Source of the DNA: Parcubacteria group bacterium
GTDB taxonomy: Bacteria > Patescibacteriota > Minisyncoccia > Moranbacterales > UBA2206
DNA length: 64,000 nucleotides
Direction of reading: 5' to 3'
Assembly: GCA_041674205.1 (NCBI GenBank)
Contig: JBAYWF010000004.1
Location: 26,721-90,720 of the forward strand
Below the pieces are notes generated by a model. That model had not been told where the DNA came from, ran no database searches, and worked only from the letters and a program-made list of their open reading frames with translations. Positions 28,192 through 49,624 of this stretch are shown here, in pieces. A program made the translations under genes and the position numbers. How positions within the stretch are numbered: position 1 is the first letter of the stretch; every line of letters begins with the position of its first letter.

Positions 28192-29736
28192 TCAGGCCGC
28201 GGATATTGCCGCACGTATGGCTCTTATTTCTCCCGTCTTCAGATCCAGTTCGACCTCATCCCCGTCCTGCAGAATCCGCGTAGCGTTTTTCGTACCGATG
28301 ATGGCCGGCAAGCCGAGTTCGCGTGAAACGATCGCCGCGTGGCACGCCAAGCCGCCCTCATCGGTGATTATCGCGATGGCTTTTTTCATAAGCGGCACAA
28401 ACTCGATCCTGGTCATGCTGGTCACCAAAATCCTGCCCGCTTCAAAATCACTTTTGTCCGGACGCAGGATTATGCTCACAATCCCTCTGATTTTTTCTTG
28501 GCCGCCCCGGCTGGCTACCACGCCCATCAATCCGCTTGCAGATTCGATCTTGCTTGCCAACCCGAATAAATCCCTGGCCTCATCGCCGAAAAAAATGTTC
28601 CGCTTGCCATGCTCGAATGCCAAGAATACGCCCGACTCCCTTTTTGCGATAATCAACGGATCGACTCGCACGTCCTTTTCCAGCAAATCAAACAATTCTT
28701 CCATAAAATACGCGGTGCAGGTGTGATAATCGATTTTTTTGCGTTCCGTGATTTCCCGCAGCATGGAATAGATGTAATAGAATTGCTTCATCATTCCCGA
28801 TTTCCTTTGATCAAACCACAAAATTGCCTTTTGGGAAAATTCAATATCCATCAAATCAACCTCTCTTAGGGCATAGCGCTTTTTAAGTTCATTTTTACTA
28901 GCATGGATATTTGAGAAATTATCTTCTATTTTAGCCAGTTCATTTTCCAGGTCGGCTTCGTTTTTTATTTTTAATTCATTTTTAACTTCATCCCTCAATG
29001 AATATCCATCTACACGCGTCGCCTCATAAAAATTCGTTTTAATCCAGAAAAAATCCCGTATATATTTATCGACTAGCGGTTGGACATTTTTATCTTCCCA
29101 CGCTTTAGCGAAATCATCATTCCCAGAACTATGGATTTTCCGGTTAACCGTCAGACATATTTCAAAAAAATTCTTTCGTTCCTGATTGAAAACCGCCATC
29201 TCATCCGGATGCGCCAACACGCTCACCGCTTCCCGCGCATCTTCATAGCTGATGCCATGGCGTTTTTGGAATCGCGGCACCACTTCCCAATTGACTACCT
29301 CCGCTTTGTCTTCGCCGGTAGCGGCACATTTCCACCACTCATAGGCCAGCTCGTTTATTTTCCTAAAATATCCAGCGAATTCAGCGTCTGGAATTCCCCC
29401 TTCCGCCCTTTCCAGATATTCCAACCCCAAGCGGTCGATTTCTAGAGCCAATTTTTGTTGGGCTTGGATTTTGTTCCGCATACCCTCCGGGTTTTCCAAA
29501 TAATCTTCGTAAAACTTTTTGGAAACCTTTTTGATATCGTCCCGTGAAATCAATTGGTAGAAAACGTCCGCCCCTTGGCCGAAATAGCAATGCACGTGAT
29601 CATAATCGACTCCGGTGATTTCCGCCGAATCCGAATAGGCCCGGAAAACCCAATCGGCCGCGTTGAAAGCCGCCCGGGCGCTTTGCACGTCGATTTCATT
29701 TTCCGCCAGATATTTTTTCAATTCTTGCGCGTCCAT
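28192..29736 (-). CDS. Phosphotransferase paralog 1: variable N-terminal domain (~400 aa) + C-terminal PEP-utilising-enzyme phosphohistidine swivel domain
   Basis: C-terminus GVVASRGG...[48 protein letters not shown] matches the PEP-utilisers mobile domain. The conserved His codon falls at about 28339-28341. No ATP-grasp or PEP-binding barrel. Confidence 0.7.
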
Positions 29737-29737: not shown

Positions 29738-31159
29738 TTATTTTATTATTTTTACCAATCCATGATTCGCCTTGACTTCCACCAGCATTCCGTCTTTCAA
29801 AACCTTGGTCGCGATTTTTGTGCCGATGACGGCCGGAATGCCAAGCTCGCGCGCCACGATGGCCGCGTGGCAAGTTATACCACCTTCATCCGTCACAATA
29901 GCGGCAGCTTTACGCAAAGCAGGAATAAATTCAGGACGAGTCATAGAAGAGACCAAAATATCGCCCTCCTCCACTTTGTCTATGGTTTTAATGTCCTTGC
30001 AAATAATCACTCGTCCGATAGCGGTTCCAGCATTGGCAGTCGTGCCGTGTAAATCCATTCCGAAATCATGCTTAGCCGCTTCTTTTTCCTTTTTAATTCT
30101 AGCATACTCCGCATAATCCCCGCCTATGGATTTCTTTTCTCCCTGTTCATCCACAAGAAACAATACGCCCTGGGTCCTTTCCGTCAGCTCGCCTTCCATA
30201 TCCTTCATTTTTCCAATCGTTTCCATTCCCATGACATCATCCACTCCCAGGTAGGATAGCAGATGGCTGGCGACTCCCATCCTTTGCGCCAATTCATCCA
30301 TAATAATGCCTAGATTGCTGATAGCTCTCAAAATATTTTCTTTCCTTTCGTCCTGCCAGACCGTACAAAAATCGATTATTCCGATCATCTCTTTCAGTTC
30401 CGGACCCAAATCCATACTAGGCATATTCTCTTGTTTCGAAGAAATTTCTTTTTTATCAACCATGCTAGCTATCCTTTCCTTGAGCGAAGCAATAGTGATT
30501 TTTTTCGGACCGACATAGCTGTTTTGGATCCAAAAATATCTTTTCAAATGCGCTTCGAGCGCCGCTTCAAATTCCGCGCCTTCCAAGGACATGGTTTTTT
30601 TAAGATCGTTTTCTTCCCTGGCTATGAAAGAGATTTCCGTAGGCGCCGTTATGGCGGCGAAATACTTATTGAAACTTTTTTTATCCTCAAGGGAATCGAA
30701 TAATTTTTCCTTCAATTCTTTCTCCAGTTCCATGCCGATTCCTTCCAGCACATGGGCGATGCCTACGGAATCAGTCATAGCTTCCAAACTTTTTTTGAAA
30801 TGGTCCAAAAGCCCCACGTCGTCCATCAGAGCCACCTCTCCAGCTCCGACGCTATCAAACATCTCCCGATGTTTTTTAAAAATTTCTTCGTACCGGTTTT
30901 TAATCTTAACCAGATAATCATTGTCTTCCCCGATCTTCTTCTTCGCCTGCATCCAAACGTCGGCCAGATCGCTTTGCAAATAGCCGTATTCGCAATAATC
31001 ATCCTGGTAACTGCAAATGAAACCGGAATATCCATATCCCAGATGTTTTTTCATCGGCACCAGGCTTGCGGCGCAAGAGTTCAAAAAAATCGGCACGCCG
31101 TTGAATCCTTGGATATACCAATCCTTTTCCAGTGCCATTTCCAGATCTTTTTTGTCCAT
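29738..31159 (-). CDS. Phosphotransferase paralog 2: variable N-domain + phosphohistidine swivel domain
   Basis: C-terminus GTAIGRVIICKD...ILVSSMTRPEFIPALRKAAAIVTDEGGITCHAAIVARELGIPAVIG. The N-domain shares a YFWIQNSY-type motif with paralog 1 (YFWIKTNFY) but is otherwise divergent. Confidence 0.7.
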   Translation of the reverse strand: MDKKDLEMALEKDWYIQGFNGVPIFLNSCAASLVPMKKHLGYGYSGFICSYQDDYCEYGYLQSDLADVWMQAKKKIGEDNDYLVKIKNRYEEIFKKHREMFDSVGAGEVALMDDVGLLDHFKKSLEAMTDSVGIAHVLEGIGMELEKELKEKLFDSLEDKKSFNKYFAAITAPTEISFIAREENDLKKTMSLEGAEFEAALEAHLKRYFWIQNSYVGPKKITIASLKERIASMVDKKEISSKQENMPSMDLGPELKEMIGIIDFCTVWQDERKENILRAISNLGIIMDELAQRMGVASHLLSYLGVDDVMGMETIGKMKDMEGELTERTQGVLFLVDEQGEKKSIGGDYAEYARIKKEKEAAKHDFGMDLHGTTANAGTAIGRVIICKDIKTIDKVEEGDILVSSMTRPEFIPALRKAAAIVTDEGGITCHAAIVARELGIPAVIGTKIATKVLKDGMLVEVKANHGLVKIIK

Positions 31160-31171: not shown

Positions 31172-31813
31172 TTAAGACTGAAGATTTTTCTCCGCCTCGA
31201 TCAAATCATGCAAACTTCCGATTTCAACATAGCCCTCTTTCGCCCGCAAACCGTCGCCATCATTCAGGATGTGGTATAGGCGGTAGCCGAAATCGCCGGC
31301 TTCTTTTTTGACTTCTTCGGCGGCCTCCGCGAAGTTTCCGCAATTTTTGAGTTTGTCATCGGTATACACGACCGTCCGGAACCCTTCGGCATATTTTTTC
31401 CGCAAATAATCCAGAAGCATCTCTTTGGTTTTCACGTTCGTTTCGGCATAATCGAAAGTCGAGTTTATTTTTTTGAAAAACTTCCGCACATCAAATCCGA
31501 TCCGCGGGGTGAGATATTCCGCCCGCCAGTCGATCTGTTCCGGGTTGCCTTGCGTGAAAACCTCGCTGTGCTGCGCCCATTCCAAAACTTCCTGCGCGCC
31601 CGGCATCAGATCAAGCTTGAAATACCAGCCTTCGCCATAAGGTATTTTATACATTTCTTCCTCTTCCCGCGCGGAAATACCGTCCATTTTTCTGCCAAGT
31701 TCGTTTTCCAGCCAATCATAATAGCCGGCAAATCCGGTTTTCTCCGCGTCCCATTCCTCCCGGAAAATCGTCCCGGCCAGATCCCAAAGATACAATGTTT
31801 TATTATTTTTCAT
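31172..31813 (-). CDS. Hypothetical protein with weak HAD-like features
   Basis: LYLWDLAGTIF resembles a degenerate HAD motif I (second Asp absent). TVVYTDDK is motif-IV-like. Assignment is weak. Confidence 0.3.
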   Translation of the reverse strand: MKNNKTLYLWDLAGTIFREEWDAEKTGFAGYYDWLENELGRKMDGISAREEEEMYKIPYGEGWYFKLDLMPGAQEVLEWAQHSEVFTQGNPEQIDWRAEYLTPRIGFDVRKFFKKINSTFDYAETNVKTKEMLLDYLRKKYAEGFRTVVYTDDKLKNCGNFAEAAEEVKKEAGDFGYRLYHILNDGDGLRAKEGYVEIGSLHDLIEAEKNLQS

Positions 31814-32393
31814 CTATTTCTCTAATTAATTTTTTTATATCTTTAAAAATTATCACTTTCATTCCCGCCAATATGGCGCCTTCCACCCTGTCCGGGCGAT
31901 CATCGACATAGATAGCCTCCCCTCCGGATATCCCGGCTTGGGCGAGAGCATAGTCAAAAATTTCTTTTGCCGGCTTGCGGATATGCAGATCACCCGACAC
32001 CGCGATGATATCGAAAATGCCGTTCCATCCGAAGTTATTGGAAAAATATTCGAACCATTCCTTGGGATTATTGGAAATGACGCCGATTTTATATTTTTTC
32101 TTCAAGGTCCTAATATAATCCACGAGCTCGGTATTTTGAACGAAGCCCCCAAGTACGGATTCCCGTAATCGATTTACATCCAGCCCATTCTTAAAATTCT
32201 TACTTACCTCATCGAAATATTCTTTTTCAGAAATTTTACCCAGCGTAAAATCCTTCCAGTATGGAAAATCGCGCATTGCCGCGTAAAGACTGCCTGGCGC
32301 CAAGGAATTATCCTTTTCATATTCCCTGATTCCGGAGATAAACCCCTCTTTTACCAGGACATTTCCCGAATCAAAAAAAATCGCTTTTATCAT
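31803..32393 (-). CDS. HAD-superfamily hydrolase-fold protein (subfamily IA-like, variant motif I)
   Basis: IFFDSGNVL (motif I, second Asp replaced), IGVISNN (motif II), K...YVDDRPDRVEGAILAGMKVIIF (motifs III/IV). Confidence 0.55.
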   Translation of the reverse strand: MIKAIFFDSGNVLVKEGFISGIREYEKDNSLAPGSLYAAMRDFPYWKDFTLGKISEKEYFDEVSKNFKNGLDVNRLRESVLGGFVQNTELVDYIRTLKKKYKIGVISNNPKEWFEYFSNNFGWNGIFDIIAVSGDLHIRKPAKEIFDYALAQAGISGGEAIYVDDRPDRVEGAILAGMKVIIFKDIKKLIREIDEK

Positions 32394-32399: not shown

Positions 32400-33899
32400 T
32401 TAACTTGTAGCCCGTTCAATGATTTTTATCACGCCTGTTTTGGCATCCACTTCCACTAGATCATTATCATGGATTATCCTCGTGCCGTTTTTCGTATCCA
32501 TCACGCAAGGAACGCCTAGTTCCCTCGATACGATCGCCGCATGCGAAGACAATCCGCCCTGATCGGCTATTATAGCTGCCGCCTTTTCCATCGCCACCAC
32601 GAAATCCGGGGTAGTGAATTGGGCGACCAATATATCGCCCTTGTTTACTTTCGGGATATCCTTTTTGTCCAGGCAAATTTTCGCCCTTCCGCGAATAATC
32701 CCTCCCGAACATGCCACTTTGCCTTTTAGCTCCTCGGATTTTACGACATCGACGAAATAATCTTTTTCCATTTTTTTTATTTCTTCCGGATCGGTAATCA
32801 GCCGCGTCTTTGAATTACGGACGATCATAGCATAATTGGAATGCCTCCGCGCCATTTCTTCCGCATCGGGCAATACCTTGCCTTCCAGGGCGCCAAACAT
32901 TTCCTCATCCGTGATTTCCATGATTTCATCCGGATTGAAATTAGATCTTCGGGCGATTTCGGAATAGAGAAAACTCGCTCCAAAATCAGCATTGAAGAAA
33001 GCTTCTACGCGCCTATTGCGCAAATATGAATGATGTTTGGCCTTTCTGATTATTTCCAGAAAGTCAGGCTTAGGTTTTATCTTATCCAGCGCCGCTTCAT
33101 AGTCCGCCTCCACTTTTTCTTCCGAAGCGTTATAGTCCATCTCGTCCAATTTCATTCCATCGTCCACCTGTTTTTTTATTTCTTTCAAGCGATTGATTAT
33201 GTCCTCAAAAGAATAGGGCCGGCTAGTAGCCAATCCCCTGTTTATATAGGCGTATTTATCCAGATGATCATCGATAATATTCCTAGCCTCAGCCGATAAT
33301 CCATCCAGATCCTCCATTTTTTCAAAAAAATCCTTCGCAATCGCCAATAGAGCTATCCTTTCCTGGCTCACTTCGGTCGCTTTTTCCGGATCGGTAAACG
33401 TCAGCACTAGGTTCCTGAATCCAGAATCGCTAGAAGGGATGTATTCCGCCAAATTGTTCTCAATCGCGTTCTCAAAATACTCATCCAGTGGATATTGCGC
33501 ATACCAGGCGCCGACCAGACTCCTATATTTATTCAATATATCAGCCAAGGATTCCTTCAACTCAGAATTGTCTTTTTCTTTCCAATTGATTTTTTTAAGT
33601 TCTAATCCTTTTTTATACAGATTCTCGCATTCTTCCAATTCTCTTTGGCAATACCGCTCAAACCAACCATCATTAGCCTTAAGATGATCAATCACTTCTT
33701 TTTCGAAACTGTTATATTCCGACGCCTCCCAATACATCATATGGTTCAAGAATGTGCGGTTGCAAAGCACGGTTTTAATTTCGACTTTGCTAGCATCCTC
33801 CTTGTTAAAAGCAGAATTTATCATAAAACGCAAGAAAATCGGAAGTTTTCCCGAAGGTTTGATCCTCCATTTCCCCGAATGCATGACCGCTGATGACAT
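32400..33899 (-). CDS. Phosphotransferase paralog 3: variable N-domain + phosphohistidine swivel domain
   Basis: C-terminus KGKVACSGGIIRGRAKI...[46 protein letters not shown]. Confidence 0.7.
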   Translation of the reverse strand: MSSAVMHSGKWRIKPSGKLPIFLRFMINSAFNKEDASKVEIKTVLCNRTFLNHMMYWEASEYNSFEKEVIDHLKANDGWFERYCQRELEECENLYKKGLELKKINWKEKDNSELKESLADILNKYRSLVGAWYAQYPLDEYFENAIENNLAEYIPSSDSGFRNLVLTFTDPEKATEVSQERIALLAIAKDFFEKMEDLDGLSAEARNIIDDHLDKYAYINRGLATSRPYSFEDIINRLKEIKKQVDDGMKLDEMDYNASEEKVEADYEAALDKIKPKPDFLEIIRKAKHHSYLRNRRVEAFFNADFGASFLYSEIARRSNFNPDEIMEITDEEMFGALEGKVLPDAEEMARRHSNYAMIVRNSKTRLITDPEEIKKMEKDYFVDVVKSEELKGKVACSGGIIRGRAKICLDKKDIPKVNKGDILVAQFTTPDFVVAMEKAAAIIADQGGLSSHAAIVSRELGVPCVMDTKNGTRIIHDNDLVEVDAKTGVIKIIERATS

Positions 33900-33917
33900 A
33901 TGATTGTAATTAAAAGA

Positions 33918-34868
33918 TTATTTTGCTGATTCTTTAGAATTTTTCCATTCCTTATACTTGCCCACCAATGCCAGAAATTTATTTTTGTCGATAAAAACTT
34001 TGCTTTCCGCCGGTCGGCTGCCACCCTCGAACCTGACCGGTATTTTATCCGGCAGATCGTTCGGATTTTTGATATCCAAATAGATCGATTCGTTGGTATC
34101 GATAAAACCGCCAAAGTCCTCGTTTTCAAAATCGGAAATCGGTCCTTCCTGGCCATCCGCTCCCAGCATAACGCCCGCCTTCTTCAACAAGGCCTCCATG
34201 AACATGCCATGCGTAACAGTATTCAATACGGCATCCTTTTTAACATTGGAATCATCCCCACCCCGGTATCGCCTATCATATCTTCCCGCTATTTCAAATT
34301 CGTGATTCAATTGTTGCGCTAACCCCATAGCCATCCGGGTTATCACCTCATCGTTTTCTTCCCTTAGGATATATCTGAATCCGACCGCTTGGTTTTTGGC
34401 CCGGATCGGTGCGATTTTTTCTTGGTCGGGCAATTTCGTAAGGTCGACTTTCAATTTTCCATTTTCATCCCTTTCAGTCGACTCGCCTAATTCCCGCAGG
34501 GTTTCTTCATTGATCAAATCAGCAGCTTTCCCTAGCTGTTTTTTCAAATCCGGATTCAATATCCCATATTGGATATCCTCGACTTTGCGCGTAGCATATT
34601 GCTTCCCGGTCAATTCCGACTTGATGCCGCTTTTTTCAGAAATGAGATCGCCAGTAATAAAAGCTCGGTCGCTTTTTTCATCACTGGCATAGGCCTTCAG
34701 CACCTCGGCCTCTTCTCCGATTTGCCCGCCCTTCCCACTTGCGTTTTCAATGCCCTCGGGAGAAAGTTCACCTGAAGCCAGCCTTTCCGCGTGCCTTGTG
34801 ATCATAAAGACATATGTGGGTTCTTTTTCAAATGTTACTTCTTTAGGGCCGCCTTCCTTGAAACTCAT
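33918..34868 (-). CDS. Histidine-phosphatase-superfamily protein (phosphoglycerate-mutase-like branch)
   Basis: VFMITRHAERL gives the RHG-type catalytic motif (R-H-A-E). Confidence 0.5.
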   Translation of the reverse strand: MSFKEGGPKEVTFEKEPTYVFMITRHAERLASGELSPEGIENASGKGGQIGEEAEVLKAYASDEKSDRAFITGDLISEKSGIKSELTGKQYATRKVEDIQYGILNPDLKKQLGKAADLINEETLRELGESTERDENGKLKVDLTKLPDQEKIAPIRAKNQAVGFRYILREENDEVITRMAMGLAQQLNHEFEIAGRYDRRYRGGDDSNVKKDAVLNTVTHGMFMEALLKKAGVMLGADGQEGPISDFENEDFGGFIDTNESIYLDIKNPNDLPDKIPVRFEGGSRPAESKVFIDKNKFLALVGKYKEWKNSKESAK

Positions 34869-36381: not shown

Positions 36382-36394
36382 ATTGAATATGATA

Positions 36395-37882
36395 TCACGA
36401 ATTTATTTTTAATATTCGAACTGTCCCGCGATCCGCATCCACCTCCACCAAATCCCCGTCGTGCAAAATTTGCGTCGCGATTTTGGTGCCGATGATACAA
36501 GGTTTTTTCATTTCTCGAGCGACGATAGCCGCGTGGCAAGTGACACCGCCTTCGTCTGTCACAAAAGCAGAAGCTTTACGCATAGCCGGAAGATAACTAG
36601 GCTTGGTCATATGCGCGATCAAAATATCCCCTGCCTTCACTTTCATCAAATCTTGCTCGTTGTTTAAAACTTTTACTGCGCCCCTTGCGATCCCATGCGA
36701 GGCCACCACTCCCATAATTTCAGTTTTCACATCTCTAACCAAAGATTTCTTGCCAATTTCCCGCCCGATTATTTTCTCCGCTTCCGTGCCGACATGATAA
36801 TTCTCCTTGCCGTCACACATCCACATAAATGTTCCATCCCTATGGGATACTTCCCTAAAATCAAAATTTTTACCGCCCACCAAGTCCTTGTATTCAGAAA
36901 ATTTCATAAAATACCGCGCCTCTTTTGGAACATCAAATCTCCTAATCACCTCCTTGAATAAAATATTTATATACTGATGGGATCTAGTATATATGCCATC
37001 CCTATATTCCTTTAAATAAATAATTTTTCTCAATGCGGAAAATAAATCATGATGCCTCTTATCAATATTCAATTTATTTTCTATGTCTTTTATATTTTTC
37101 GCGATTTCTTTCTTTCCAGGAAGAGTGGACAATCCCTTTTCCGATAAATCCTTTAATCTCGGAATAAAATCCCCCGGCTCCATTATGGGCCCAAGAAATT
37201 GATAACCCAATGACTGCCAACCGAATTTCTCCGCATGCTTCTTTAATGCCAACGACGCTTTGGTTCCTGAAATAGATTCCCCCTTTCTGATCATTTTCAC
37301 GATCTTCCAAAGATTTTCATCACTTAATCTGGCCCAAGACTTTCCCGGATTGTAGGCAAGCTTAGAAAAATATTCTCCGAGTTTATTTTCTTCGCCCGCG
37401 TCTTTTAATTTTGATTTCAAATACGGGATTACTTCATCCTCAATGGCAAAGGTGGCGATTACCGGAATATATGTATATATGGCTAAATTTTCATAGGCTT
37501 TTTCAAAATCACTCAAATATTTCAAAAGTTCCTTATCACCTTTACTAGAAAAGTCGATTTTAGAAAATTTTTTGCTATACGCTATCAGGTTTCGGCCATT
37601 TTTAAAATGATATTTTTCCAGTCTGTCTAAAAAATTCGTTTCTTTTTTTATTTCTCTCAAGAAAAATTTGGCAAAATTATCCAAATCCTGTTGTTTCCAA
37701 TATATGGATATTTTATCGCCCTCCCATAAATAAATATGTCCGAGATAGGTTTTGGCAAATTTCTTAAATGCCGGATGGAAAGGATGCGCGCTATCCCGCA
37801 AGTTGCAATATGAAACCGCAATTCCCTCCCGCTCCGTCCAAAGCCACCATTTGGATTTATTTTTAGATCTGGTTTTCTCCAT
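36395..37882 (-). CDS. Phosphotransferase paralog 5: variable N-domain + phosphohistidine swivel domain
   Basis: C-terminus GVVASHGIARGAVKVL...ILIAHMTKPSYLPAMRKASAFVTDEGGVTCHAAIVAREMKKPCIIGTKIATQILHDGDLVEVDADRGTVRIL. Confidence 0.7.
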   Translation of the reverse strand: MEKTRSKNKSKWWLWTEREGIAVSYCNLRDSAHPFHPAFKKFAKTYLGHIYLWEGDKISIYWKQQDLDNFAKFFLREIKKETNFLDRLEKYHFKNGRNLIAYSKKFSKIDFSSKGDKELLKYLSDFEKAYENLAIYTYIPVIATFAIEDEVIPYLKSKLKDAGEENKLGEYFSKLAYNPGKSWARLSDENLWKIVKMIRKGESISGTKASLALKKHAEKFGWQSLGYQFLGPIMEPGDFIPRLKDLSEKGLSTLPGKKEIAKNIKDIENKLNIDKRHHDLFSALRKIIYLKEYRDGIYTRSHQYINILFKEVIRRFDVPKEARYFMKFSEYKDLVGGKNFDFREVSHRDGTFMWMCDGKENYHVGTEAEKIIGREIGKKSLVRDVKTEIMGVVASHGIARGAVKVLNNEQDLMKVKAGDILIAHMTKPSYLPAMRKASAFVTDEGGVTCHAAIVAREMKKPCIIGTKIATQILHDGDLVEVDADRGTVRILKINS

Positions 37883-37896
37883 AATTTATAAAATCT

Positions 37897-38991
37897 TTAT
37901 TCCTCGCTCGCTCTCTTTAAAATTTTAACCACCCCCTTATCCGCGTCCACTTCCACTTCATCACCCGTTTTGAATGAGAGCGTCGCGTTAACCGTATTTA
38001 CGATACAGGGGATATTAAGCTCCCGCGACACGACTGCCGCATGGGAAAGCATTCCTCCGGTATTCGTAACGATCGCTGCCGCTTTTTTACATAACAATAG
38101 GACCTCCGGGCTGGTAGTCTCCGCTATTAGAATATCTCCCTTTTTCATTATTTTATCAATCTCCATAATCTGCTTATGATTATCGAACATCGGAACCACT
38201 ACAGCTTTTCCCGAAACCATCCCCCTGCTCGCGCTAACGCCTTTAACAATTTTCCTATTCACCCTTTCAGCAAATCGATCAAAAATATTTTTGGCTTCTT
38301 GATATGGGAATACCGCCAGCTTTCCCTTATGGTTTGTAGCCGCATAACATTTTTCTCTTCGTTCATAATCTTTTGGCGGCATATGTCCGTCAAAAAGCCC
38401 TCTTATCTCATCGGTGTAAAGATACTCGGCTTTCACGTCGTATTTCCTGGAAAAATATTTATAAATATTTTCCAAGACACCGCCCCTGAAATAATAGTCG
38501 TTCATAATTTCCCGGACTTCGAATTTAAATCTACCAGCATAATCCAAGTTTTTCTTTATGACCTTATTATCGTTCTTTTGAGCCACGGCATATGCATATT
38601 CTTGGAAATAGGCTTCTAAAAATCCATATCTTTTCCATAATAATCCCATGAAGTTTCTTGCATCAATGAATTCTTCTTTGGTTAAATTTTCGGGAACTTT
38701 TTTAAAATCTTTAATTATCCCTGACTTCGCTTCTCGTATATATTCCTTATATTCCTCAATATATCCATTAAATTCTTCCTGATTTCCATATAGCTCCAAC
38801 CCTTGTTCCGCCCAATCTTTTTCATGTCGACGGCTTATATATGAATAAAATACCATATTTTGGTTCATGACAAGCATATCTTGTCCCAGTGGACCCTCCA
38901 GAAGAAATTCACTATGCATACATCCGATAAGCCCGTCTGTACGGAAATATTTAATGAAATCTTCCGGATTCAATTGGTTTGGGTTTATCAT
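37897..38991 (-). CDS. Phosphotransferase paralog 6 (short N-domain, ~260 aa) + phosphohistidine swivel domain
   Basis: C-terminus GVSASRGMVSGKAVVV...ILIAETTSPEVLLLCKKAAAIVTNTGGMLSHAAVVSRELNIPCIVN. Confidence 0.65.
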   Translation of the reverse strand: MINPNQLNPEDFIKYFRTDGLIGCMHSEFLLEGPLGQDMLVMNQNMVFYSYISRRHEKDWAEQGLELYGNQEEFNGYIEEYKEYIREAKSGIIKDFKKVPENLTKEEFIDARNFMGLLWKRYGFLEAYFQEYAYAVAQKNDNKVIKKNLDYAGRFKFEVREIMNDYYFRGGVLENIYKYFSRKYDVKAEYLYTDEIRGLFDGHMPPKDYERREKCYAATNHKGKLAVFPYQEAKNIFDRFAERVNRKIVKGVSASRGMVSGKAVVVPMFDNHKQIMEIDKIMKKGDILIAETTSPEVLLLCKKAAAIVTNTGGMLSHAAVVSRELNIPCIVNTVNATLSFKTGDEVEVDADKGVVKILKRASEE

Positions 38992-39005
38992 ATATTTATT
39001 TACAG

Positions 39006-39830
39006 TTAATCATTCAATTCCACTTTCTCGCCCCTTCTCGCTATGGCGATGCTATTTTCTGAGACGTCGATTTTTATAGCTTCACAATTCTTAATTTCAT
39101 GATCGCCAAAATATTCATTTAAAGCATAGGCTATATAATTTTCATGTCCGAATGCCATAACTTTTATATTTTTCCCAGACCCGCTCTCCTTGATTTTATC
39201 ATGACCAAACCTTATCAACCTTAACAAATTTTTAAAATTGACATCAAACGTATCTTTAGCTGATTTTATTTCAGGGAAAAATTTTTTTAATTCTTCCGAG
39301 TAGTGAAAAAAATTAGCCCCCCAATTCCCATAATTTTTATTTTCTACAATTTTTCGAGCTTCCTCCCATTTCTTCCTGGCTTCAGCTGGAACTTTTTCCC
39401 AGTCTACATCCACGGACCGTGTCGGCATAAAAAGATATTGGACAAGAACATTGTCTATGCGCAATGACAAGTTTTTTATCTTCCTTATTCTCCCCTCACT
39501 AACTTCGTCTGAATACGCGCTTCTTGAACGTTTAGGACATACTATTTCGAAGCCTTTTCTTTCAGCAACCTTCATATATATGCTGGCCGTATCCATCGCT
39601 CTCACTTGCCCGCTAGACACAAAGAATAATCCATCATCATCGGGGTTAAATTCCGATAATAATTTTTCTGCCTCTTGCTCCGCCAAAATAATTCCTTCTT
39701 TTGATAAATCATTCTTTTCTTGCTCGCTTTCCTCAATAGGGCCCTGAGGATTATCAGAATCTAATATTTTTTTATAACTCTTATATTCTGAAATGCTATG
39801 GCGCACACCGTAAATTTCACTTTTTTCCAT
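39006..39830 (-). CDS. Histidine-phosphatase-superfamily protein
   Basis: IYGVRHSISEY (RHG-type motif) and MAFGHENYI (second catalytic His region). Confidence 0.5.
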   Translation of the reverse strand: MEKSEIYGVRHSISEYKSYKKILDSDNPQGPIEESEQEKNDLSKEGIILAEQEAEKLLSEFNPDDDGLFFVSSGQVRAMDTASIYMKVAERKGFEIVCPKRSRSAYSDEVSEGRIRKIKNLSLRIDNVLVQYLFMPTRSVDVDWEKVPAEARKKWEEARKIVENKNYGNWGANFFHYSEELKKFFPEIKSAKDTFDVNFKNLLRLIRFGHDKIKESGSGKNIKVMAFGHENYIAYALNEYFGDHEIKNCEAIKIDVSENSIAIARRGEKVELND

Positions 39831-39834
39831 AAAT

Positions 39835-40047
39835 TTATTTGTCTTCCGATTTTTTAATTATCCTCACAATCCCCTTATCCGCATCCACTTCCACCAGATC
39901 CCCGTCACGCAAAACTTGGGTGGCGATTTTGGTGCCGACGATACAAGGGATTTTGAATTCCCGCGCCAGCATCGAGGCGTGGCAAAGCATTCCGTCCTCA
40001 TCGGTCACGATCGCTTTTACTTTTTTCTTAAAATATAAATGGGCCAA
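39835..40047 (-). pseudogene. Orphan 3-prime fragment of a phosphohistidine-swivel-domain gene (C-terminal ~60 residues only)
   Basis: Encodes ...KAIVTDEDGMLCHASMLAREFKIPCIVGTKIATQVLRDGDLVEVDADKGIVRII behind a short non-homologous leader. Overlaps the 3-prime end of the methyltransferase paralog at 40017-40838 by about 30 nt. Confidence 0.6.
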
Positions 40048-40838
40048 TATCTGGGATCGAAGTATTTATCGGTTATGTATTTAACGTCTTCAATCAGATA
40101 ATATTTATTAAAAATATTTTCCAAATTGTCCCTTAGCGGCAATCTGATTTTCAGGCTGCTCGGTTTAATAAATCCAAGCATCGTCTTAAGTTCCGAATCA
40201 TCAATAATCCGTTTTCCGCGCATATCGCGCAACTTCGATAATATTCCGGACGGCGTATAGGATCCTTTTTTCCGCCCTATTGAAAGCGCCAGGTCCGGGT
40301 AAGCCATCATAAAAAGCGTTTTTTTGCCCGTCTTGATTCGCAGTTTCCTGTATCTTTCAAACCCATCAGCCGGATTGACTTCTTTGCGTACCGGACGTAT
40401 TACCGCGGTAGTCGCGAATATCCCGCCCGGCTTCAAATTGTCGGCAATATTTTTTACAAAAAAGCTTTGTTTATTTATCGGGATCATATTGATAACGTTA
40501 TGGCCCATTATCAAATCAAATCCACGCGCATCATCCAGCTCAAGCCAATCAGACTCAATGAATAATTCTTTTCCATCCCTTTTCATCAAAATCCTCAGCG
40601 CCTCATACACCTCCGAATTCACATCACAACAAATCGGCGTTATTTTATGCTTCAAAAGCAAATCACGGAATTCCGGCGTCGACCCCAAAATTAAAATCCT
40701 CGGCTTCTTATTACCTGCAAGAACCTTTCTGATGATTTTTTCGTATATAGCCATTTCCAACCCTGGCCTGACGGGCGCGGCATAATTTTTCCAATCTTTT
40801 GCCAATTGTTTGTTCCAAGGAAGTTTTTTTTCAGTCAT
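40017..40838 (-). CDS. Methyltransferase-fold paralog 7 (same family as the 8.6-14.1 kb array)
   Basis: VRPGLEMAIY, ILILGSTPEFRDL, ICCDVNSEV, FDLIMGH, LKPGGIFATTAV. Confidence 0.5.
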   Translation of the reverse strand: MTEKKLPWNKQLAKDWKNYAAPVRPGLEMAIYEKIIRKVLAGNKKPRILILGSTPEFRDLLLKHKITPICCDVNSEVYEALRILMKRDGKELFIESDWLELDDARGFDLIMGHNVINMIPINKQSFFVKNIADNLKPGGIFATTAVIRPVRKEVNPADGFERYRKLRIKTGKKTLFMMAYPDLALSIGRKKGSYTPSGILSKLRDMRGKRIIDDSELKTMLGFIKPSSLKIRLPLRDNLENIFNKYYLIEDVKYITDKYFDPRYWPIYILRKK

Positions 40839-40857
40839 ATCTATATATAACTAATTA

Positions 40858-40900
40858 TTTCGCGCCCACCTCCGCCAGATCCCCATTCTGCAAAAAATCG
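40858..40900 (-). repeat. Remnant of the conserved 3-prime terminus of a swivel-domain gene (...LQNGDLAEVGAK*), immediately downstream of the GGCT-like gene
   Basis: cgcgcccacctccgccagatccccattctgcaaaaaatcgc parallels the 3-prime ends of paralogs 4/5 (cgcatccacctccaccaaatccccgtcgtgcaaaatttgcg). Confidence 0.5.
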
Positions 40901-40903
40901 CAT

Positions 40904-41446
40904 TCAATCAATCTGGTGCTTCCTCCTATATTCTTCATAATCTCTTGCCGCGACTTTCAAAATAGCATCTTTCGGGACTAAATAATCTTCATAATCCCCA
41001 TTTTCAATCACCCTATCCGCCGGCATATCCGGCGATAATGACCCGTGCGTGATAATATTGACGATTTTTCCTTCTGAATCCATCGCAATGGCTTTGATAT
41101 CTTCCTGCATACCATATTCCAGCAATTCCCAATCCCTAACCAATCCATATTCTTCTTCTGTCAGTTTCCAAATCGTACCATAAGTGACGGCGTTAACTTT
41201 TGGCCTGATAATATATAACTCAAAATTATCATCAAAAGCCTTGGAAACGATTTCGCGCGGAGAAAGCCTGGATGGCGCCGTCCCAATTATTTCTCCCGGT
41301 ATATCATCGATTTTTTGGACACACAGCTCAAAGCCCAGTAATTTTCCCTTAACGCCTTCGATTTTTTCACGGCCAACCATAGCAGACATCATCTCCAAAT
41401 CGCGATTAGTGCCATAGCCGAAATAATCCAATAGTTGCTTCTTCAT
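40904..41446 (-). CDS. Gamma-glutamyl cyclotransferase-like (GGCT/AIG2/BtrG fold) protein
   Basis: N-terminal YFGYGTNRD matches the YFAYGSN signature of the GGCT fold. Confidence 0.5.
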   Translation of the reverse strand: MKKQLLDYFGYGTNRDLEMMSAMVGREKIEGVKGKLLGFELCVQKIDDIPGEIIGTAPSRLSPREIVSKAFDDNFELYIIRPKVNAVTYGTIWKLTEEEYGLVRDWELLEYGMQEDIKAIAMDSEGKIVNIITHGSLSPDMPADRVIENGDYEDYLVPKDAILKVAARDYEEYRRKHQID

Positions 41447-41465
41447 AGCGTTTGTTTTGATTTAA

Positions 41466-42344
41466 TTAATTCAAACTTAATTCTTTGCCTTGTATTTCAC
41501 AGGATGCCTTGCCGCGCTTATCGATTCCGATGGAAATGCCAGCGCCTTGATCGACTGGCAAATATTTTTTCATGTCTATCCCGGCAATATGCCTTTTGAT
41601 AAAAGGGCTTATGGAATCATAATGGCTTACCGCCCAGATGATTAATCGCCTGTCAGGATTAGCCTTGTGATATTCATCAGCTATCTGCGCCTGTAATGAA
41701 AGCGCGTAATTAACCCGGTCAGCTATTCCATCCGGACCTTCCGCACCCATCTCTACACGAGTCTCCCTTTCCGAATCTGATTCATACGCATCCCAAAATT
41801 CCACCCCGGTTCCATATTTATCTATCAAAAATTGCGTAAATTCTGGTGACTCTTCCAATATCATCAAGTCCCTCAGTTCTGAAACTTCAATAGCTCCGCC
41901 GTTTTGAGCGGCTGAATTATTCAACAATTGTCCATCCGCAATAAAAAATTCCGACATAGATTCCCTGAGCCCCGTCATTACCTGACCGGCAGTTTCCACC
42001 GCCCTCTGATGCTTATTTTTTATTCCATCGGGAGTGGACAATGTCGAATCGCTGGCAATCACCATCACATCGATCATTTTTCTCTCTTCCTCATTTAAAC
42101 CGCCAAATATCTTATTGAAAAATTCCTTGGCGTTCACTCGCACTTGTTCTGCCGCGCCAACTTCAAGCGCACCCATATCTGGCGAGTCTTTGCGCCTATC
42201 GTCTTTGGCGTTGCGCTGCAAAACGATTGTCGAGCCGCCGATTTCAGGCATTTTTGGATGGAGATCTGCCGATGTGATTCTTTCTATTTCAACCTTCCCG
42301 CCTTCGTTATGAAAAATTTGATTCGGCCATTCATTCATAAACAA
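41466..42344 (-). CDS. Hypothetical protein, possibly a degenerate histidine-phosphatase-like fold
   Basis: RLIIWAVSHYDSISP resembles the second-His region of histidine phosphatases, but the RHG motif is not evident (IVLQRNAKD). Confidence 0.3.
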   Translation of the reverse strand: MFMNEWPNQIFHNEGGKVEIERITSADLHPKMPEIGGSTIVLQRNAKDDRRKDSPDMGALEVGAAEQVRVNAKEFFNKIFGGLNEEERKMIDVMVIASDSTLSTPDGIKNKHQRAVETAGQVMTGLRESMSEFFIADGQLLNNSAAQNGGAIEVSELRDLMILEESPEFTQFLIDKYGTGVEFWDAYESDSERETRVEMGAEGPDGIADRVNYALSLQAQIADEYHKANPDRRLIIWAVSHYDSISPFIKRHIAGIDMKKYLPVDQGAGISIGIDKRGKASCEIQGKELSLN

Positions 42345-42353
42345 TTTAATTTT

Positions 42354-42893
42354 TTATTTATTAATATCCTTAGCCAGATAATCCGCCGCCTCTTCTATGG
42401 AATCAAAAATAGGCACTCCTTTCTCTTTCCATTTTGAAATCCAATTCCTGTGTCCCATAACCTGCCCTAGCCGATCAGAAGTCGCCCCGCCATCATAGTT
42501 CGTTTCTTCTCTCTTTTTGATAAATGATTTATGCTTCTCCCATTCGGGCACGACTACCGCATCCGGCCTAAGCCAATTATTAGAAGCGCCCATAATCCAC
42601 AAACCTTTTTCTATGGCCCGCTTTGTCACTTCATCACTTCGCCTATCGATTTCATCCATCACATCTTCGCTTTCCAGCCACCATGCCCTTTTCGGATGAG
42701 CGCCTGATTTTTCCCATAATTTATCGCCATCGATCCAATTTTTGTCCTTTTGCCTATCTACAAAATATGTTTTACCGGCACCGGATGGAGCAACGATAAA
42801 AAGCCCTGACTTGTGCCTGACGAATTCTTTTAAAAACAGCTCTATCGCCTCAGCAATCTGAGAATCATCCAATGGCTCCAGATCATATACCAT
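42354..42893 (-). CDS. P-loop kinase/NTPase (small-molecule or nucleotide kinase-like). The ORF track extends it to 42974 through an upstream swivel-domain remnant
   Basis: Walker A LFIVAPSGAGKTYFV. Probable start MVYDLEPLDD at 42893. The upstream in-frame codons (MQDGSLVEVDAGVVI) are homologous to swivel-domain C-termini. Confidence 0.5.
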   Translation of the reverse strand: MVYDLEPLDDSQIAEAIELFLKEFVRHKSGLFIVAPSGAGKTYFVDRQKDKNWIDGDKLWEKSGAHPKRAWWLESEDVMDEIDRRSDEVTKRAIEKGLWIMGASNNWLRPDAVVVPEWEKHKSFIKKREETNYDGGATSDRLGQVMGHRNWISKWKEKGVPIFDSIEEAADYLAKDINK

Positions 42894-42924
42894 ATTTTTT
42901 AATATTAAAATGTTACGCTTTTTT

Positions 42925-42975
42925 AATATTATCACAACTCCCGCATCCACTTCCACTAGACTCCCATCCTGCAAA
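42925..42975 (-). repeat. Remnant of the conserved 3-prime terminus of a swivel-domain gene (QDGSLVEVDAGVVI), in frame with the P-loop kinase ORF
   Basis: caactcccgcatccacttccactagactcccatcctgcaaaac parallels the paralog 3-prime ends. Confidence 0.5.
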
Positions 42976-42998
42976 ACCTAAATGAATAATCCTAATCC

Positions 42999-43946
42999 CT
43001 AATTTTTCAAAGTCGTAATCGGCCGGCTTTGGACGATGTGAAATTTTCCACTTTCATAAGCCCACTCGATATCGCACGGAAAACCGTAATGTTTTTCGAT
43101 ACCCAAGATTATTTCCGACAATTCCAAAATTTGTTTTTCCGCCAGGACTTGCGCGGACGCTTGCGGCTCGGGAATATTTTTCCATTCGTTGCCGCCGTTT
43201 TGCGCCCGATAGATCCCGCGTTCCTGCGTGGAAACGTTGATGTCTAAAATATTCCTCGGATTTTTTTCCACCACATAACTGTCCGGGGTGATTTGGCCGG
43301 ACACGATCGCTTCGCCGAGGCCATAGCCGGCTTCGATGATGAGTTGATTGCGATCTTCCGTCACCGGGTGCACCGAAAAAGCGATGCCGGAAATCTCGCT
43401 TTCCACCATTTTTTGCACCACCACCGCCACGGAAATTTTTTGTTTATGCAGGTTTTTTTCAAAACGGTAAAAAATCGCGCGCGGTGTGAATAGCGACGCC
43501 CAACAATGCTGGACTTTTTCCAATAAATTATCCTTGGTCGTGTTCAAATAGGAATCCAATTGCCCCGCCCAAGCGTTTTCCGCGCCGTCCTCCGCCGTCG
43601 CACTGGACCGGACAGCCACGAATTCAGCATTCAATTCGGTAAATCTTTTTTTAATTTCTTGCGCGATATCTTCCGGCATCTGCGCCTTTTTAATCAAAGT
43701 CTGGATCTTTTCCGAAGCCTCTTCGACCGTGTGCATCGCATTGTGATCGACAGTATGTAAAACCGCATCCACCTCGACGCCCAAATCGGTTTCCGCTAGA
43801 AATTTCTCGAAAGTCCCGGCCAGAACCACGAAGCCAGGCGGCACCGGGATGCCGGCCTGCGTCATCTCGCCGAGAGACGCTCCTTTGCCTCCGGCGATAT
43901 CGGTATCGCTTTTTGATAAATTTTGAAAAATTCTAATCAGTTCCAT
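42999..43946 (-). CDS. Stand-alone PEP-synthase/pyruvate-phosphate-dikinase N-terminal ATP-grasp (nucleotide-binding) domain protein, ~315 aa
   Basis: IAGGKGASLGEMTQAGIPVPPGFVV near the N-terminus. VAVRSSATAEDGAENAWAGQLDSYLN, AVVVQKMVESEISGIAF and C-terminal CDIEWAYE...HIVQSRPITT match the PPDK_N / rifampin-phosphotransferase ATP-binding domain. No swivel or substrate domain follows. Confidence 0.75.
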   Translation of the reverse strand: MELIRIFQNLSKSDTDIAGGKGASLGEMTQAGIPVPPGFVVLAGTFEKFLAETDLGVEVDAVLHTVDHNAMHTVEEASEKIQTLIKKAQMPEDIAQEIKKRFTELNAEFVAVRSSATAEDGAENAWAGQLDSYLNTTKDNLLEKVQHCWASLFTPRAIFYRFEKNLHKQKISVAVVVQKMVESEISGIAFSVHPVTEDRNQLIIEAGYGLGEAIVSGQITPDSYVVEKNPRNILDINVSTQERGIYRAQNGGNEWKNIPEPQASAQVLAEKQILELSEIILGIEKHYGFPCDIEWAYESGKFHIVQSRPITTLKN

Positions 43947-44136
43947 AGTGTTTTTTGCCTTATTAACGACTTATTTATAATCCAAGCATATCACAAAGAC
44001 CGCATCTGACAAAACCTGTTTTTTATTTTAAAATCTCCCCCATCTCTTGTTCCATACCAATCTAGACTAAAACCCCGTACCCTTCCGAATCATTTAGAGC
44101 CATCCAGCTTCATTAAAAAAACCAGGATGGGAATTC

Positions 44137-45426: not shown

Positions 45427-45526
45427 TCTTGATTATATTCCGGTACCGGCCAGCTAGGGATGAAAAATCCTGTTCTAGAAGAATCTCGATGATTTCATCC
45501 CTATGGTTGGAATACGGATTTTTGCC

Positions 45527-46741: not shown

Positions 46742-46832
46742 TGCTTTTTCTTTAAATTAATAAATAAATCCAATCCCTATCCGCCGGAACAGGCATTAAT
46801 ATATATTTTACTTTGAATTCAAGTATTGTCAA

Positions 46833-47990: not shown

Positions 47991-47991
47991 A

Positions 47992-49611: not shown

Positions 49612-49624
49612 ATTCCTTATGCCG

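Follow-up and report, generated by a model that had tools for sequence, protein, structure and literature searches.

A free-standing ATP-grasp protein beside six swivel-domain proteins in a patescibacterial gene cluster: a likely ATP-binding component of a split small-molecule dikinase

Dikinases with a separate ATP-grasp subunit have been characterised in HpeHI of Rhodococcus rhodochrous GD02, CreHI and the phenylphosphate synthase PpsAB (PMC12167813), so an earlier note on the DNA described here was wrong to hold that the PPDK_N domain occurs only as the N-terminal part of larger, multi-domain enzymes. These systems belong to degraders of aromatic compounds and act on a phenolic substrate; adjacent and co-oriented genes, in a 1:1 ratio, encode an ATP-grasp polypeptide (~315–390 aa, a range shared with the protein discussed below) and a partner in which a rifampin-binding-domain-like domain is followed by a C-terminal swivel with the motif T/SxxGGxxxH. 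The crystal structure of HpeI has been solved (9GOJ; PMC12167813). No stable complex of HpeHI was detected although the two are a proven pair, and HpeH by itself moves phosphate between phosphorylated product and substrate (PMC12167813). An interaction is thus not to be assumed from gene adjacency, and orphan modules might therefore function without being charged directly. The same three parts occur on a single chain, in the N-to-C order ATP-grasp, helical substrate-binding domain and swivel with its histidine, in the rifampin phosphotransferase RPH-Lm (5FBS, 5HV1; PMC4844700) and its single-chain relatives PigC and RedH. PpsA and pyruvate phosphate dikinase have homologous ATP-grasp and swivel domains, and presumably use the same beta-phosphoryl-His chemistry, but combine them with a PEP/pyruvate TIM-barrel, the swivel lying in the centre of the protein.

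The locus reported here lies in a window, by which we mean the whole 64-kb stretch of DNA that was analysed, from a member of Patescibacteria. It is a tightly packed minus-strand cluster of 15 genes (28192–43946) with junctions mostly of 1–34 nt; the ATP-grasp gene is the first, and rplI comes after the last (28192–29736). Its features, starting from the ATP-grasp end and with substrate domains denoted X, are as follows.

43985..44012, minus strand: candidate sigma-70-like promoter (TTGTCA-16-TATGCT, with TG) within the 190-nt gap that precedes the ATP-grasp gene (consensus scan; weak evidence)
42999..43946, minus strand: stand-alone ATP-grasp (PPDK_N) subunit, 315 aa, ATG start (Pfam, PDB alignments, AF2 and Foldseek, dN/dS)
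42354..42893, minus strand: 179-aa protein with a Walker-A motif (APSGAGKT; sub-threshold AAA matches only)
41466..42338, minus strand: 290-aa protein (no match in Pfam, NCBIfam or PADLOC)
40904..41446, minus strand: 180-aa protein (no family match in Pfam or NCBIfam)
40017..40838, minus strand: methyltransferase-like protein, 273 aa (Methyltransf_12/25/11, E 2e-4 to 9e-3, all below Pfam cut-offs)
39006..39830, minus strand: histidine-phosphatase-superfamily protein, 274 aa (alignment A2, with invariant R-H...R...H; weak His_Phos_1 match)
37897..38991, minus strand: acceptor protein 1, short X domain and C-terminal swivel (GGMLSH), 364 aa (PEP-utilizers, 1.2e-24)
36395..37882, minus strand: acceptor protein 2, rifampin-binding-domain-like X domain and swivel (catalytic His450), 495 aa
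34903..36381, minus strand: acceptor protein 3, X domain and swivel (GGITSH), 492 aa (PEP-utilizers, 2.1e-24)
33918..34868, minus strand: histidine-phosphatase-superfamily protein, 316 aa, with R25, H26, R68 and H220 (jackhmmer, alignment A2, PDB profile matches)
32400..33899, minus strand: acceptor protein 4, X domain and swivel (GGLSSH), 499 aa (PEP-utilizers, 1.8e-24)
31803..32393, minus strand: HAD-family hydrolase, 196 aa (HAD_2, 3.6e-16; Hydrolase, 1.3e-14)
31172..31813, minus strand: 213-aa protein (no family match), with an 11-nt overlap with the HAD gene
29738..31159, minus strand: acceptor protein 5, X domain and swivel (GGITCH), 473 aa (PEP-utilizers, 3.2e-25; hhalign 100%, 358 columns)
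28192..29736, minus strand: acceptor protein 6, X domain and swivel (GGLACH), 514 aa (swivel HMM, 3e-48; hhalign)

The cluster shares with the two-component dikinases a separate ATP-grasp polypeptide, partners composed of X domain and swivel, and adjacent, co-oriented genes. It departs from them in its gene ratio of 1:6, in its patescibacterial setting with no aromatic-catabolism genes in the cluster (Pfam and NCBIfam scans), in an ATP-grasp without special closeness to HpeI (E 7e-56, compared with 1e-75 for PEPS and 4e-65 for RPH), in the multi-acceptor-module fusions seen among its relatives, and in a histidine-phosphatase companion, which is missing from the two-component systems known so far.

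The sole Pfam domain of the 315-aa protein is PPDK_N (PF01326; E 3.2e-99; 332.7 bits, the cut-off being 27), residues 16–314 covering profile positions 2–313 of 328. The earlier note had rightly recognised a free-standing PPDK_N domain with no swivel or substrate domain, in a frame ending just after the RPITT motif; the stop codon follows three residues further on (...HIVQSRPITTLKN*). Structure prediction, which the note had proposed alongside HMMs for confirming the domain boundaries, agrees with the profile match. Over its whole length the protein can be aligned with two crystal structures, that of the ATP domain of rifampin phosphotransferase in isolation (5hv6; E 1.7e-65) and that of the free-standing HpeI subunit (9goj; E 6.9e-56), as well as with PEPS, and its AF2 model (pLDDT 74.7) has a two-lobed ATP-grasp fold with the boundaries of the autonomously folding RPH ATP domain (Foldseek TM 0.79/0.81 to 5hv6_A; E 1.4e-22 to 9goj). 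Alignment to 5hv6/5fbs, with residue roles taken from PMC4844700, and conservation in the family together place the predicted ATP/Mg site at K21, R113, S132, E294, Q306 and R308. The triphosphate/Mg ligands of RPH, i.e. K22, R117, T136 and E297 (PMC4844700), correspond to K21, R113, S132 and E294, the replacement of T136 by S132 being conservative, and K21, R113, E294, Q306 and R308 are invariant among 82 members of the ATP-grasp family. The ATP-binding residues, whose absence the note had said would count against its reading, are thus present. More than 100 homologues (protein clusters) with 70–90% identity are likewise ~314–320 aa long and carry PF01326 only; an exact-sequence look-up of the 315-aa protein gave no match.

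The note's other reservation, that a frameshift just downstream might conceal a continuation into a swivel domain, can be set aside. An independent Logan assembly is 100% identical across window positions 26395–43342, which cover the stop codon of the ATP-grasp gene and the DNA downstream (the Logan contig ends within the gene, cutting it to 113 residues), and the stop codon reproduced there, together with read-through translation, rules out a frameshift, a merged ORF or an assembly artefact. The only swivel-like sequence downstream is a relic of 20 codons, discussed below.

A scan of the entire 64-kb window found one PPDK_N domain, and the six swivel proteins, all encoded on the minus strand, were confirmed, which bears out the earlier statement that this is the only ATP-grasp module beside them. 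The GGxxxH motif is kept in all six. A family profile aligns to RPH residues 456–866 (E 1.7e-31), and the X domain of acceptor 2 is recognisable in acceptor 4 by BLASTP (E 1e-6 over 363 aa; aligned in A1); for the X domains of the remaining paralogues homology is at the profile level (hhalign probability 97–100%), with 99.2% over 324 columns for acceptor 3 against the modelled X domain and 96.9% for the shortened X domain of acceptor 1, alignable over only 76 columns. NCBIfam RPH-type models match acceptor 6 beyond its swivel. The X domain here is nevertheless shorter than in RPH (~385 aa versus ~430 aa) at 15–18% identity, and the catalytic segment R666-E667-K670 of RPH (YREYPK) aligns with LKEYRD, whose conserved Arg, the nearly invariant R294, is offset by three positions. 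The scores against the NCBIfam rifamycin-phosphotransferase models NF041857 and NF000283 (291 with a cut-off of 999, and 204.9 with a cut-off of 1700) fall below the equivalog level, the parts of the single RPH chain of ~865 aa are here split into separate polypeptides, and there is no evidence for rifamycin as a substrate. Mean identity among the six paralogues is 48% for the swivel domains and 18% for the X domains, compared with 71% for the ATP-grasp across the family; conserved swivel and ATP-grasp domains next to divergent X domains are the pattern that a common docking constraint would produce.

The names given to homologues (JGI: 'pyruvate, water dikinase') would suggest a split PEP synthase or pyruvate phosphate dikinase of central metabolism, and by sequence the ATP-grasp does match PEP synthases best, in NCBIfam as in the PDB (8A8E in the latter case). 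The scores, however, fall far under the equivalog cut-offs (333.5 versus 598 for TIGR01418; 322.6 versus 739.75 for NF005057), with the match confined to the N-terminal ~335 model positions. Since PEP-utilizers_C is absent from the ATP-grasp ORF and from all cluster genes (Pfam), and the partner has a different fold, rifampin-binding-domain-like with a C-terminal rather than central swivel and no TIM-barrel, we reject this assignment as extremely improbable.

The wider distribution of the family is more informative about the partners of the ATP-grasp. Among 78 related loci, mostly from Patescibacteria, the ATP-grasp stands alone in 24 and is fused in 54, with 60–90% identity in the fused relatives. 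The fused ORFs contain one ATP-grasp and one, two, three, five or seven modules of substrate domain plus swivel, usually followed by further orphan modules; the largest unites seven acceptor modules in a single polypeptide of 3,181 aa. The X-domain families of four paralogues from the window occur within such fusions (that of acceptor 1 has 23 members, 12 of them within ATP-grasp fusions; that of acceptor 3 is present in 16 loci), and an orthologue of a fifth (36395–37882) is fused to PPDK_N in P0130. Of the stand-alone loci, 18 have 2 kb or more of sequence on the downstream side, and each of these has a swivel gene nearby. In the tree of the ATP-grasp, split and fused forms are intermingled, and the fission seen here looks recurrent and independent. 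Close homologues of the ATP-grasp also occur in MAGs labelled DPANN.

The fusions, the adjacency in 18 of 18 loci and the HpeHI precedent lend good support to the earlier note's supposition that the 315-aa protein binds ATP as the partner of the neighbouring swivel proteins. An independent function, for instance in a ligase-type reaction with a merely historical adjacency to the swivel genes, could be imagined from the many ligases of the ATP-grasp superfamily and from D-Ala-D-Ala ligases appearing as distant fold matches, but it is very unlikely for a protein that belongs specifically to the PPDK_N family and which, in a pattern conserved throughout that family, lies next to swivel modules or is fused with them. 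The note's further step, a partner shared by the whole island, is less secure. The pattern of fusion and fission supports it indirectly; trans phosphotransfer, sharing among all six acceptors and small-molecule substrates are what we infer.

The ATP-grasp might alternatively serve a single acceptor, as HpeI serves HpeH, the other five being charged by a donor elsewhere or only exchanging phosphate between substrates. Every two-component dikinase characterised so far is encoded by a 1:1 pair of genes, product-to-substrate phosphotransfer is catalysed by HpeH alone (PMC12167813), and four sampled genomes have two ATP-grasp loci each (L021/L047, L043/L059, L037/L068 and L053/L064), so a second donor may also exist elsewhere in the source genome, of which 64 kb are considered here. 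We nonetheless regard a one-to-one pairing as unlikely, given the single PPDK_N in the window, the ORFs joining one ATP-grasp with up to five to seven acceptor modules, the presence of X families of several different window paralogues among the fusion partners, and the count within ±10 kb of 207 modules in ~55 X-domain families for 82 ATP-grasp domains or loci, window included.

With six divergent acceptors and a single ATP-grasp, one donor for several acceptors of different specificity is therefore the most likely arrangement. On the evidence of sequence comparison and analogy, there is a good chance that the 315-aa protein, the product of a deletion, provides the ATP-binding part of a split small-molecule dikinase of the RPH type, and it probably supplies phosphate to the six neighbouring acceptors. 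By analogy with RPH and HpeHI, it would clasp Mg-ATP between its two lobes via K21, R113, S132 and E294; the swivel of an acceptor would dock on it in trans, the conserved histidine of T/S-x-x-GG-x-x-x-H attacking the beta-phosphate, after which the gamma-phosphate would leave as Pi and AMP would be released. The phospho-His swivel would then return to its own rifampin-binding-domain-like domain and phosphorylate a hydroxyl of the bound small molecule. In its logic alone, such a scheme resembles the PTS, where one energy-coupling entry protein (Enzyme I) feeds phospho-His carriers, via HPr, for the several substrate modules of Enzymes II, and the swivel is homologous to the N-terminal His domain of Enzyme I; the donor, however, would be ATP via the ATP-grasp instead of PEP, and the cluster has neither HPr/EII nor membrane transporters.

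A more far-reaching and tentative proposal, to which we would give slightly less than an even chance, is that of a hub-and-spoke system widespread in Patescibacteria, in which one strongly conserved ATP-grasp donates phosphoryl groups to a whole set of divergent acceptors that may trap or detoxify host-derived molecules. To our knowledge, one free-standing ATP subunit serving many partners has not been described, free-standing subunits as such being already known, and our literature search found no description of one-to-many or multi-module dikinases in CPR. If correct, the proposal could mean that ultra-small symbionts irreversibly phosphorylate many host-derived small molecules with one energy-coupling subunit, and it would reveal an extensive and so far uncharacterised enzyme system in bacteria of the Candidate Phyla Radiation, whose metabolism is known mostly through inference from annotation. 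An ATP-grasp charging many acceptor modules would also be a modular way to build multi-substrate kinases. The labels 'pyruvate, water dikinase' and 'PEP synthase', widely attached to the homologues, would lead metabolic reconstructions to include a gluconeogenic step by mistake; manual cut-offs were already needed for PEP synthase in these bacteria by Jaffe et al. 2020 (PMC7304191).

Three remnants of swivel genes lie in the cluster.

42918..42977, minus strand: relic A, last ~20 codons of a swivel (VLQDGSLVEVDA--GVVIILKK) without the catalytic His (read-through translation)
40860..40896, minus strand: relic B, fragment of a swivel 3' end (FLQNGDLAEVGA) between two genes 65 nt apart (repeat family D2, 73%; translation)
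39838..40015, minus strand: relic C, 5'-truncated swivel of ~58 codons with the His motif degraded to DEDGMLCH, adjoining the methyltransferase stop codon (swivel HMM, E 2e-29; 198-nt repeat family D1)

Relic A is in frame with the ATP-grasp ORF, two TAG stops lying between them; it belongs to a 37-nt repeat family (84%) and is matched by the swivel HMM with a conditional E of 0.004 (0.56 for the whole window). In BLASTN it lines up collinearly with the 3' ends of fused genes (E 3e-8 for L008 and 4e-7 for L010), and the ATP-grasp gene therefore probably arose from a fused ATP-grasp–X–swivel gene by an internal deletion of ~1 kb that left the swivel tail. L073 provides an independent case, where the ATP-grasp ORF goes on without a change of frame into the final strand of a swivel. 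Because its short 3'-end sequence resembles every swivel gene, relic A could just as well derive from a separate gene, since lost, as from a fused one. The in-frame position of relic A directly downstream, together with the ongoing gene loss indicated by relics B and C, might even suggest that the ORF itself is a decaying leftover of a fused enzyme, but this notion is largely refuted and hardly tenable: the gene is under strong purifying selection (dN/dS 0.05–0.07 versus two other split orthologues), its catalytic residues are all intact, and stand-alone forms of the same length occur in >100 protein clusters and 24 loci. The selection and residue conservation rule out a pseudogene. The series of fused, split and relic states amounts to a natural experiment in how domains fuse and separate, and it could guide the engineering of dikinases towards new specificities.

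As for the other genes, the one next to the ATP-grasp gene starts 105 nt away (ATG at 42893), not after the 53-nt gap given previously. Its former description as a P-loop kinase stands in respect of the Walker-A motif but not of the kinase, no kinase family being matched and single-sequence PDB and Pfam searches giving no significant match; jackhmmer on the related loci found orthologues only in L001/L011. Motif-based labels for the 180-aa protein (GGCT-like) and for the 290-aa and 213-aa proteins (phosphatase/HAD-like) were dropped for want of HMM support. PADLOC defence models gave no relevant match to the cluster proteins, the sole significant one being of the methyltransferase domain to mad2, and a defence-system reading is without support from this source. 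The promoter and terminator scan as a whole showed no enrichment over shuffles (40 sites against 36.8 expected), and the transcription units of the cluster are for this reason not established.

The two histidine-phosphatase-superfamily genes, finally, fall into branch 1 of that superfamily by their residues and by family-level similarity. As single sequences both are below the Pfam threshold, and a PDB search with the 33918–34868 protein alone gave no significant match, its signature being visible only with the family profile: the A2 profile matches structures of PGAM, fructose-2,6-bisphosphatase (of the bifunctional 6-phosphofructo-2-kinase/fructose-2,6-bisphosphatase) and CobC, with a best E of 9e-8. 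Homologues of the 33918–34868 protein were found by jackhmmer in 24 loci, making it a recurrent third gene of these clusters; R25, H26, R68 and H220 are invariant in the 24-sequence alignment, and the homologue from L004 carries Pfam His_Phos_1.

The cluster of 15 minus-strand genes (28192-43946) opens with a gene for an isolated ATP-grasp domain:

42999-43946, minus strand, ATP-grasp ORF with ATG start, 315 aa

PPDK_N is the sole Pfam domain of the encoded protein (E 3.2e-99; residues 16-314, profile positions 2-313 of 328), in keeping with the earlier note, which had described the domain as standing alone, with neither swivel nor substrate domain, and as ending directly after the RPITT motif. 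The C-terminus (...HIVQSRPITTLKN*) indeed has its stop three residues past this motif, the close of the ATP-grasp domain. Its alignments with solved structures run from end to end for the ATP-binding domain of Listeria rifampin phosphotransferase crystallised on its own (RPH; 5hv6, E 1.7e-65), the PEP synthase structure 8a8e (E 1.1e-75) and 9goj, the structure of HpeI (E 6.9e-56). Its AlphaFold2 model (pLDDT 74.7) fits 5hv6_A (TM 0.79/0.81) and matches 9goj (E 1.4e-22); the low-confidence part is mainly the nucleotide loop, a segment that lacks order in the crystals of RPH and HpeI as well. The ATP-binding residues, whose possible absence had been raised as an objection, are present: RPH residues K22, R117, T136 and E297, whose role in placing ATP and Mg is known from mutagenesis and structure (PMC4844700), correspond to K21, R113, S132 and E294. 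Among 82 family members K21, R113, E294, Q306 and R308 do not vary and position 132 is occupied by Ser in 78 members and by Thr in four, the ATP-grasp domain being unusually conserved in the family (mean identity 71%, minimum 60%).

The protein is not a PEP synthase, as indicated by its scores of 333 (cut-off 598) and 323 (cut-off 740) and by the absence of a PEP/pyruvate domain, nor an RPH by the NCBIfam criteria (score 291, cut-off 999). Many stand-alone homologues bear the JGI label 'pyruvate, water dikinase', which is probably a misannotation of a systematic kind and could skew metabolic reconstructions made from CPR genomes.

A downstream frameshift or sequencing error might have created the stop artificially. 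The same sequence, 100% identical across positions 26395-43342, stop codon and downstream DNA included, is present in an independent Logan assembly (SRR6484325), which rules out such an artefact. A pseudogene is likewise rejected in view of the purifying selection acting on the gene (dN/dS 0.05-0.07 at dS of ~1-1.6, against the two closest split orthologues, in loci L007 and L011). The best 120 database homologues share 70-90% identity with the protein, nearly all being 313-350 aa long with PF01326 only, and the source-named entries among them are labelled Moranbacteria, Paceibacterota or Campbellbacteria. The neighbouring 495-aa protein (36395-37882) is 100% identical to the database protein P0121.

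Six cluster proteins possess a C-terminal PEP-utilizers swivel domain with an intact GGxxxH motif, and no second PPDK_N occurs in the whole 64-kb window, confirming the one-to-six ratio noticed earlier. Pairwise identity among these acceptors is only 13-22% in the N-terminal X domains, the substrate-domain candidates, versus 40-54% in the swivel tails. The model of the 36395-37882 protein (50-sequence alignment; pLDDT 92.1, pTM 0.89) retrieves RPH structures as its top Foldseek matches (E 4e-13 to 2e-12, TM 0.55 over ~560 columns), other matches covering the swivel alone (TM ≤0.21), and its family profile aligns with RPH residues 456-866 (E 1.7e-31). Opposite the catalytic segment of RPH, YR666E667YPK670, lies LKEYRD, whose R294 is nearly invariant, a match at the level of segments in which residue pairing is approximate. 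According to hhalign, the X domains of the 34903 and 28192/29738 paralogue families are homologous to that of 36395-37882 over their full length (probability 99-100%), and the short X domain of the 37897 family over the C-terminal 76 columns (96.9%).

This architecture is not without precedent. Two-component dikinases are known in phenylphosphate synthase PpsAB, CreHI and HpeHI, each consisting of a separate ATP-grasp subunit and a subunit with a rifampin-binding-like domain and a swivel; both subunits are needed, the conserved His is indispensable, and HpeI by itself has yielded a crystal structure (9GOJ) (PMC12167813). They contradict the claim of the earlier note that PPDK_N is always the N-terminal module of a multi-domain enzyme, and in its structure the 315-aa protein belongs to their class. 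The 36395-37882 protein resembles HpeH, too: for both, no structure other than RPH aligns over most of the length. The window system differs in its donor:acceptor gene ratio of 1:6, its organisms and genomic context, the recurrent histidine-phosphatase-family genes beside the ATP-grasp gene, and the apparently independent and repeated origin of the split ATP-grasp from fused forms. We regard it as a probable one-to-many form of an already known two-component dikinase.

The 315-aa protein probably serves as ATP-binding donor in a split dikinase of the RPH type, charging the downstream acceptors in trans. It would pass the ATP beta-phosphate to the swivel His of an acceptor, with release of AMP and Pi, and each charged acceptor would then phosphorylate its own substrate, presumably a small molecule. 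We also infer that one donor is common to all six acceptors; one-to-one pairing with other donors encoded elsewhere is the main rival and is compatible with the two ATP-grasp loci found in each of four sampled genomes, but we consider it unlikely. The literature searched yielded no description of one-to-many or multi-module dikinases, and a survey of the CPR resistome lists rph-like matches with nothing more on them (PMC8651080).

A scan of GTDB species representatives gave 80 loci (L007-L086), mostly from Patescibacteria and a few labelled as DPANN archaea; a custom swivel HMM and the query ATP-grasp were then run on these loci, of which 78 were analysed. The ATP-grasp stands alone in 24 and is fused in 54, the fused ORFs having one module in 34 loci, two in 14, three in four, five in one and seven in one, always with a single N-terminal ATP-grasp and usually with further orphan X+swivel genes after them. 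Eighteen stand-alone loci have 2 kb or more of downstream flank, and every one of them has at least one swivel gene nearby, nearly always downstream on the same strand. These loci and the fusions support the partnership with swivel proteins proposed in the earlier note. In a neighbour-joining tree of ATP-grasp domains split and fused states are intermixed, the window, L007 and L011 (split) being sister to L008-L010 (fused).

The 207 X modules fall into ~55 families. Those of the window paralogues 37897, 34903 and 28192/29738 are found in 15-18 loci, with 12, seven and five members, respectively, inside ATP-grasp-containing ORFs, and the database protein P0130 (779 aa) is PPDK_N fused to an orthologue of the 36395 protein (49% identity). 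That the same X families turn up in different lineages speaks for conserved specificities and against an arms-race repertoire. Dikinases of this type have a widespread, unstudied distribution in CPR and an interesting evolutionary footprint.

The largest single ORFs, each with one N-terminal PPDK_N, are L078:81-9626 (3,181 aa, seven swivel matches) and L085:10001-17830 (2,609 aa, five modules, GGxxxH intact in all); those of L046, L050, L061 and L034 have three X+swivel modules each. To our knowledge, dikinases with multiple swivels have not been described. In L064 a 555-aa ATP-grasp ORF without swivel (10001-11668) precedes a 96-aa ORF for the swivel alone (11752-12042); the pair looks like a fused gene broken by a frameshift or stop, which would make it a pseudogene or the product of a sequencing error. 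ATP-grasp homologues with 67-75% identity in MAGs labelled Woesearchaeota, Nanoarchaeia or 'archaeon' (L015, L052, L079, L081, L086) could reflect CPR-DPANN gene transfer or mis-binning.

The origin of the split gene has left traces downstream. The gap to the next gene measures 105 nt, not the 53 nt first reported; that gene, initially called a P-loop kinase, does have a Walker-A motif but matched no kinase family. Translated past its TAG, the ATP-grasp ORF continues with GLGLFI, another TAG and VLQDGSLVEVDA--GVVIILKK, the final ~20 residues of a swivel domain (intact-gene counterpart ...ILHDGDLVEVDADRGTVRILK). By itself the swivel match of this relic (42918-42977) covers little sequence, with a conditional E of 0.004 and a whole-window E of 0.56, but its identity is made more convincing by its place in a 37-nt DNA repeat family of swivel-gene 3' ends (84% identity) and by collinearity with the fused loci most closely related to it: window positions 43907-43003 align with L008 10022-10926, and 42977-42922 with L008 11990-12051 (E 3e-8), where a 694-aa ATP-grasp-X-swivel ORF ends, and L010 is likewise collinear with ATP-grasp and relic. 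Relative to these fused genes ~1.06 kb is absent from the window. The relic could be the tail of a separate gene since lost; judging from the sequences, the split gene most parsimoniously arose by internal deletion of a fused ATP-grasp-X-swivel gene. The stand-alone ORF L073:572-1561, ending ...RPITTLQKVDTDKGMVKIIKSAK*, runs in frame into the last swivel strand, an independent parallel of such an internal deletion.

Two further relics lie in the cluster:

39838-40015, minus strand, 5'-truncated swivel (E 2e-29), in the gap past the methyltransferase-like gene
40860-40896, minus strand, swivel 3' end, in the gap past the 180-aa gene

The cluster has only three long intergenic gaps (105, 65 and 186 nt), other junctions measuring -11 to 34 nt, and since the three relics fill precisely these gaps, one in each, they suggest that three acceptor genes were lost or replaced. 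The retained 3' ends may keep translation start signals for the next gene. Swivel 3' ends constitute a DNA repeat family (34893-35090, 36388-36585, 39834-40031 and others) of 198-nt units with 60-73% identity (up to 89% in the 37-nt core), directly oriented and spaced by ~1.5 kb, which could promote deletions and gene shuffling in the cluster.

A histidine-phosphatase-family protein is a recurrent third gene of the clusters, represented in the window by two divergent members with the invariant R-H...R...H:

33918-34868, minus strand, histidine-phosphatase-family protein
39006-39830, minus strand, histidine-phosphatase-family protein

Homologues of the former occur in 24 loci and of the latter in five more (29 in total; e.g. 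L004:2128-2898, L007:13439-14386). R25, H26, R68 and H220 are invariant in the family, whose profile matches phosphoglycerate-mutase-family structures; the protein could act like SixA and remove phosphate from the phospho-His carriers, or it could dephosphorylate the products. The region immediately upstream of the cluster (44137-51282, minus strand) contains cell-envelope genes in an arrangement that shows synteny with the Moranbacteria relative L001 and is not seen in more distant loci. They encode an S41 peptidase with PDZ, LytR-CpsA-Psr, two GT4 glycosyltransferases and a Wzy-like polymerase, the last three named via the L001 annotation.
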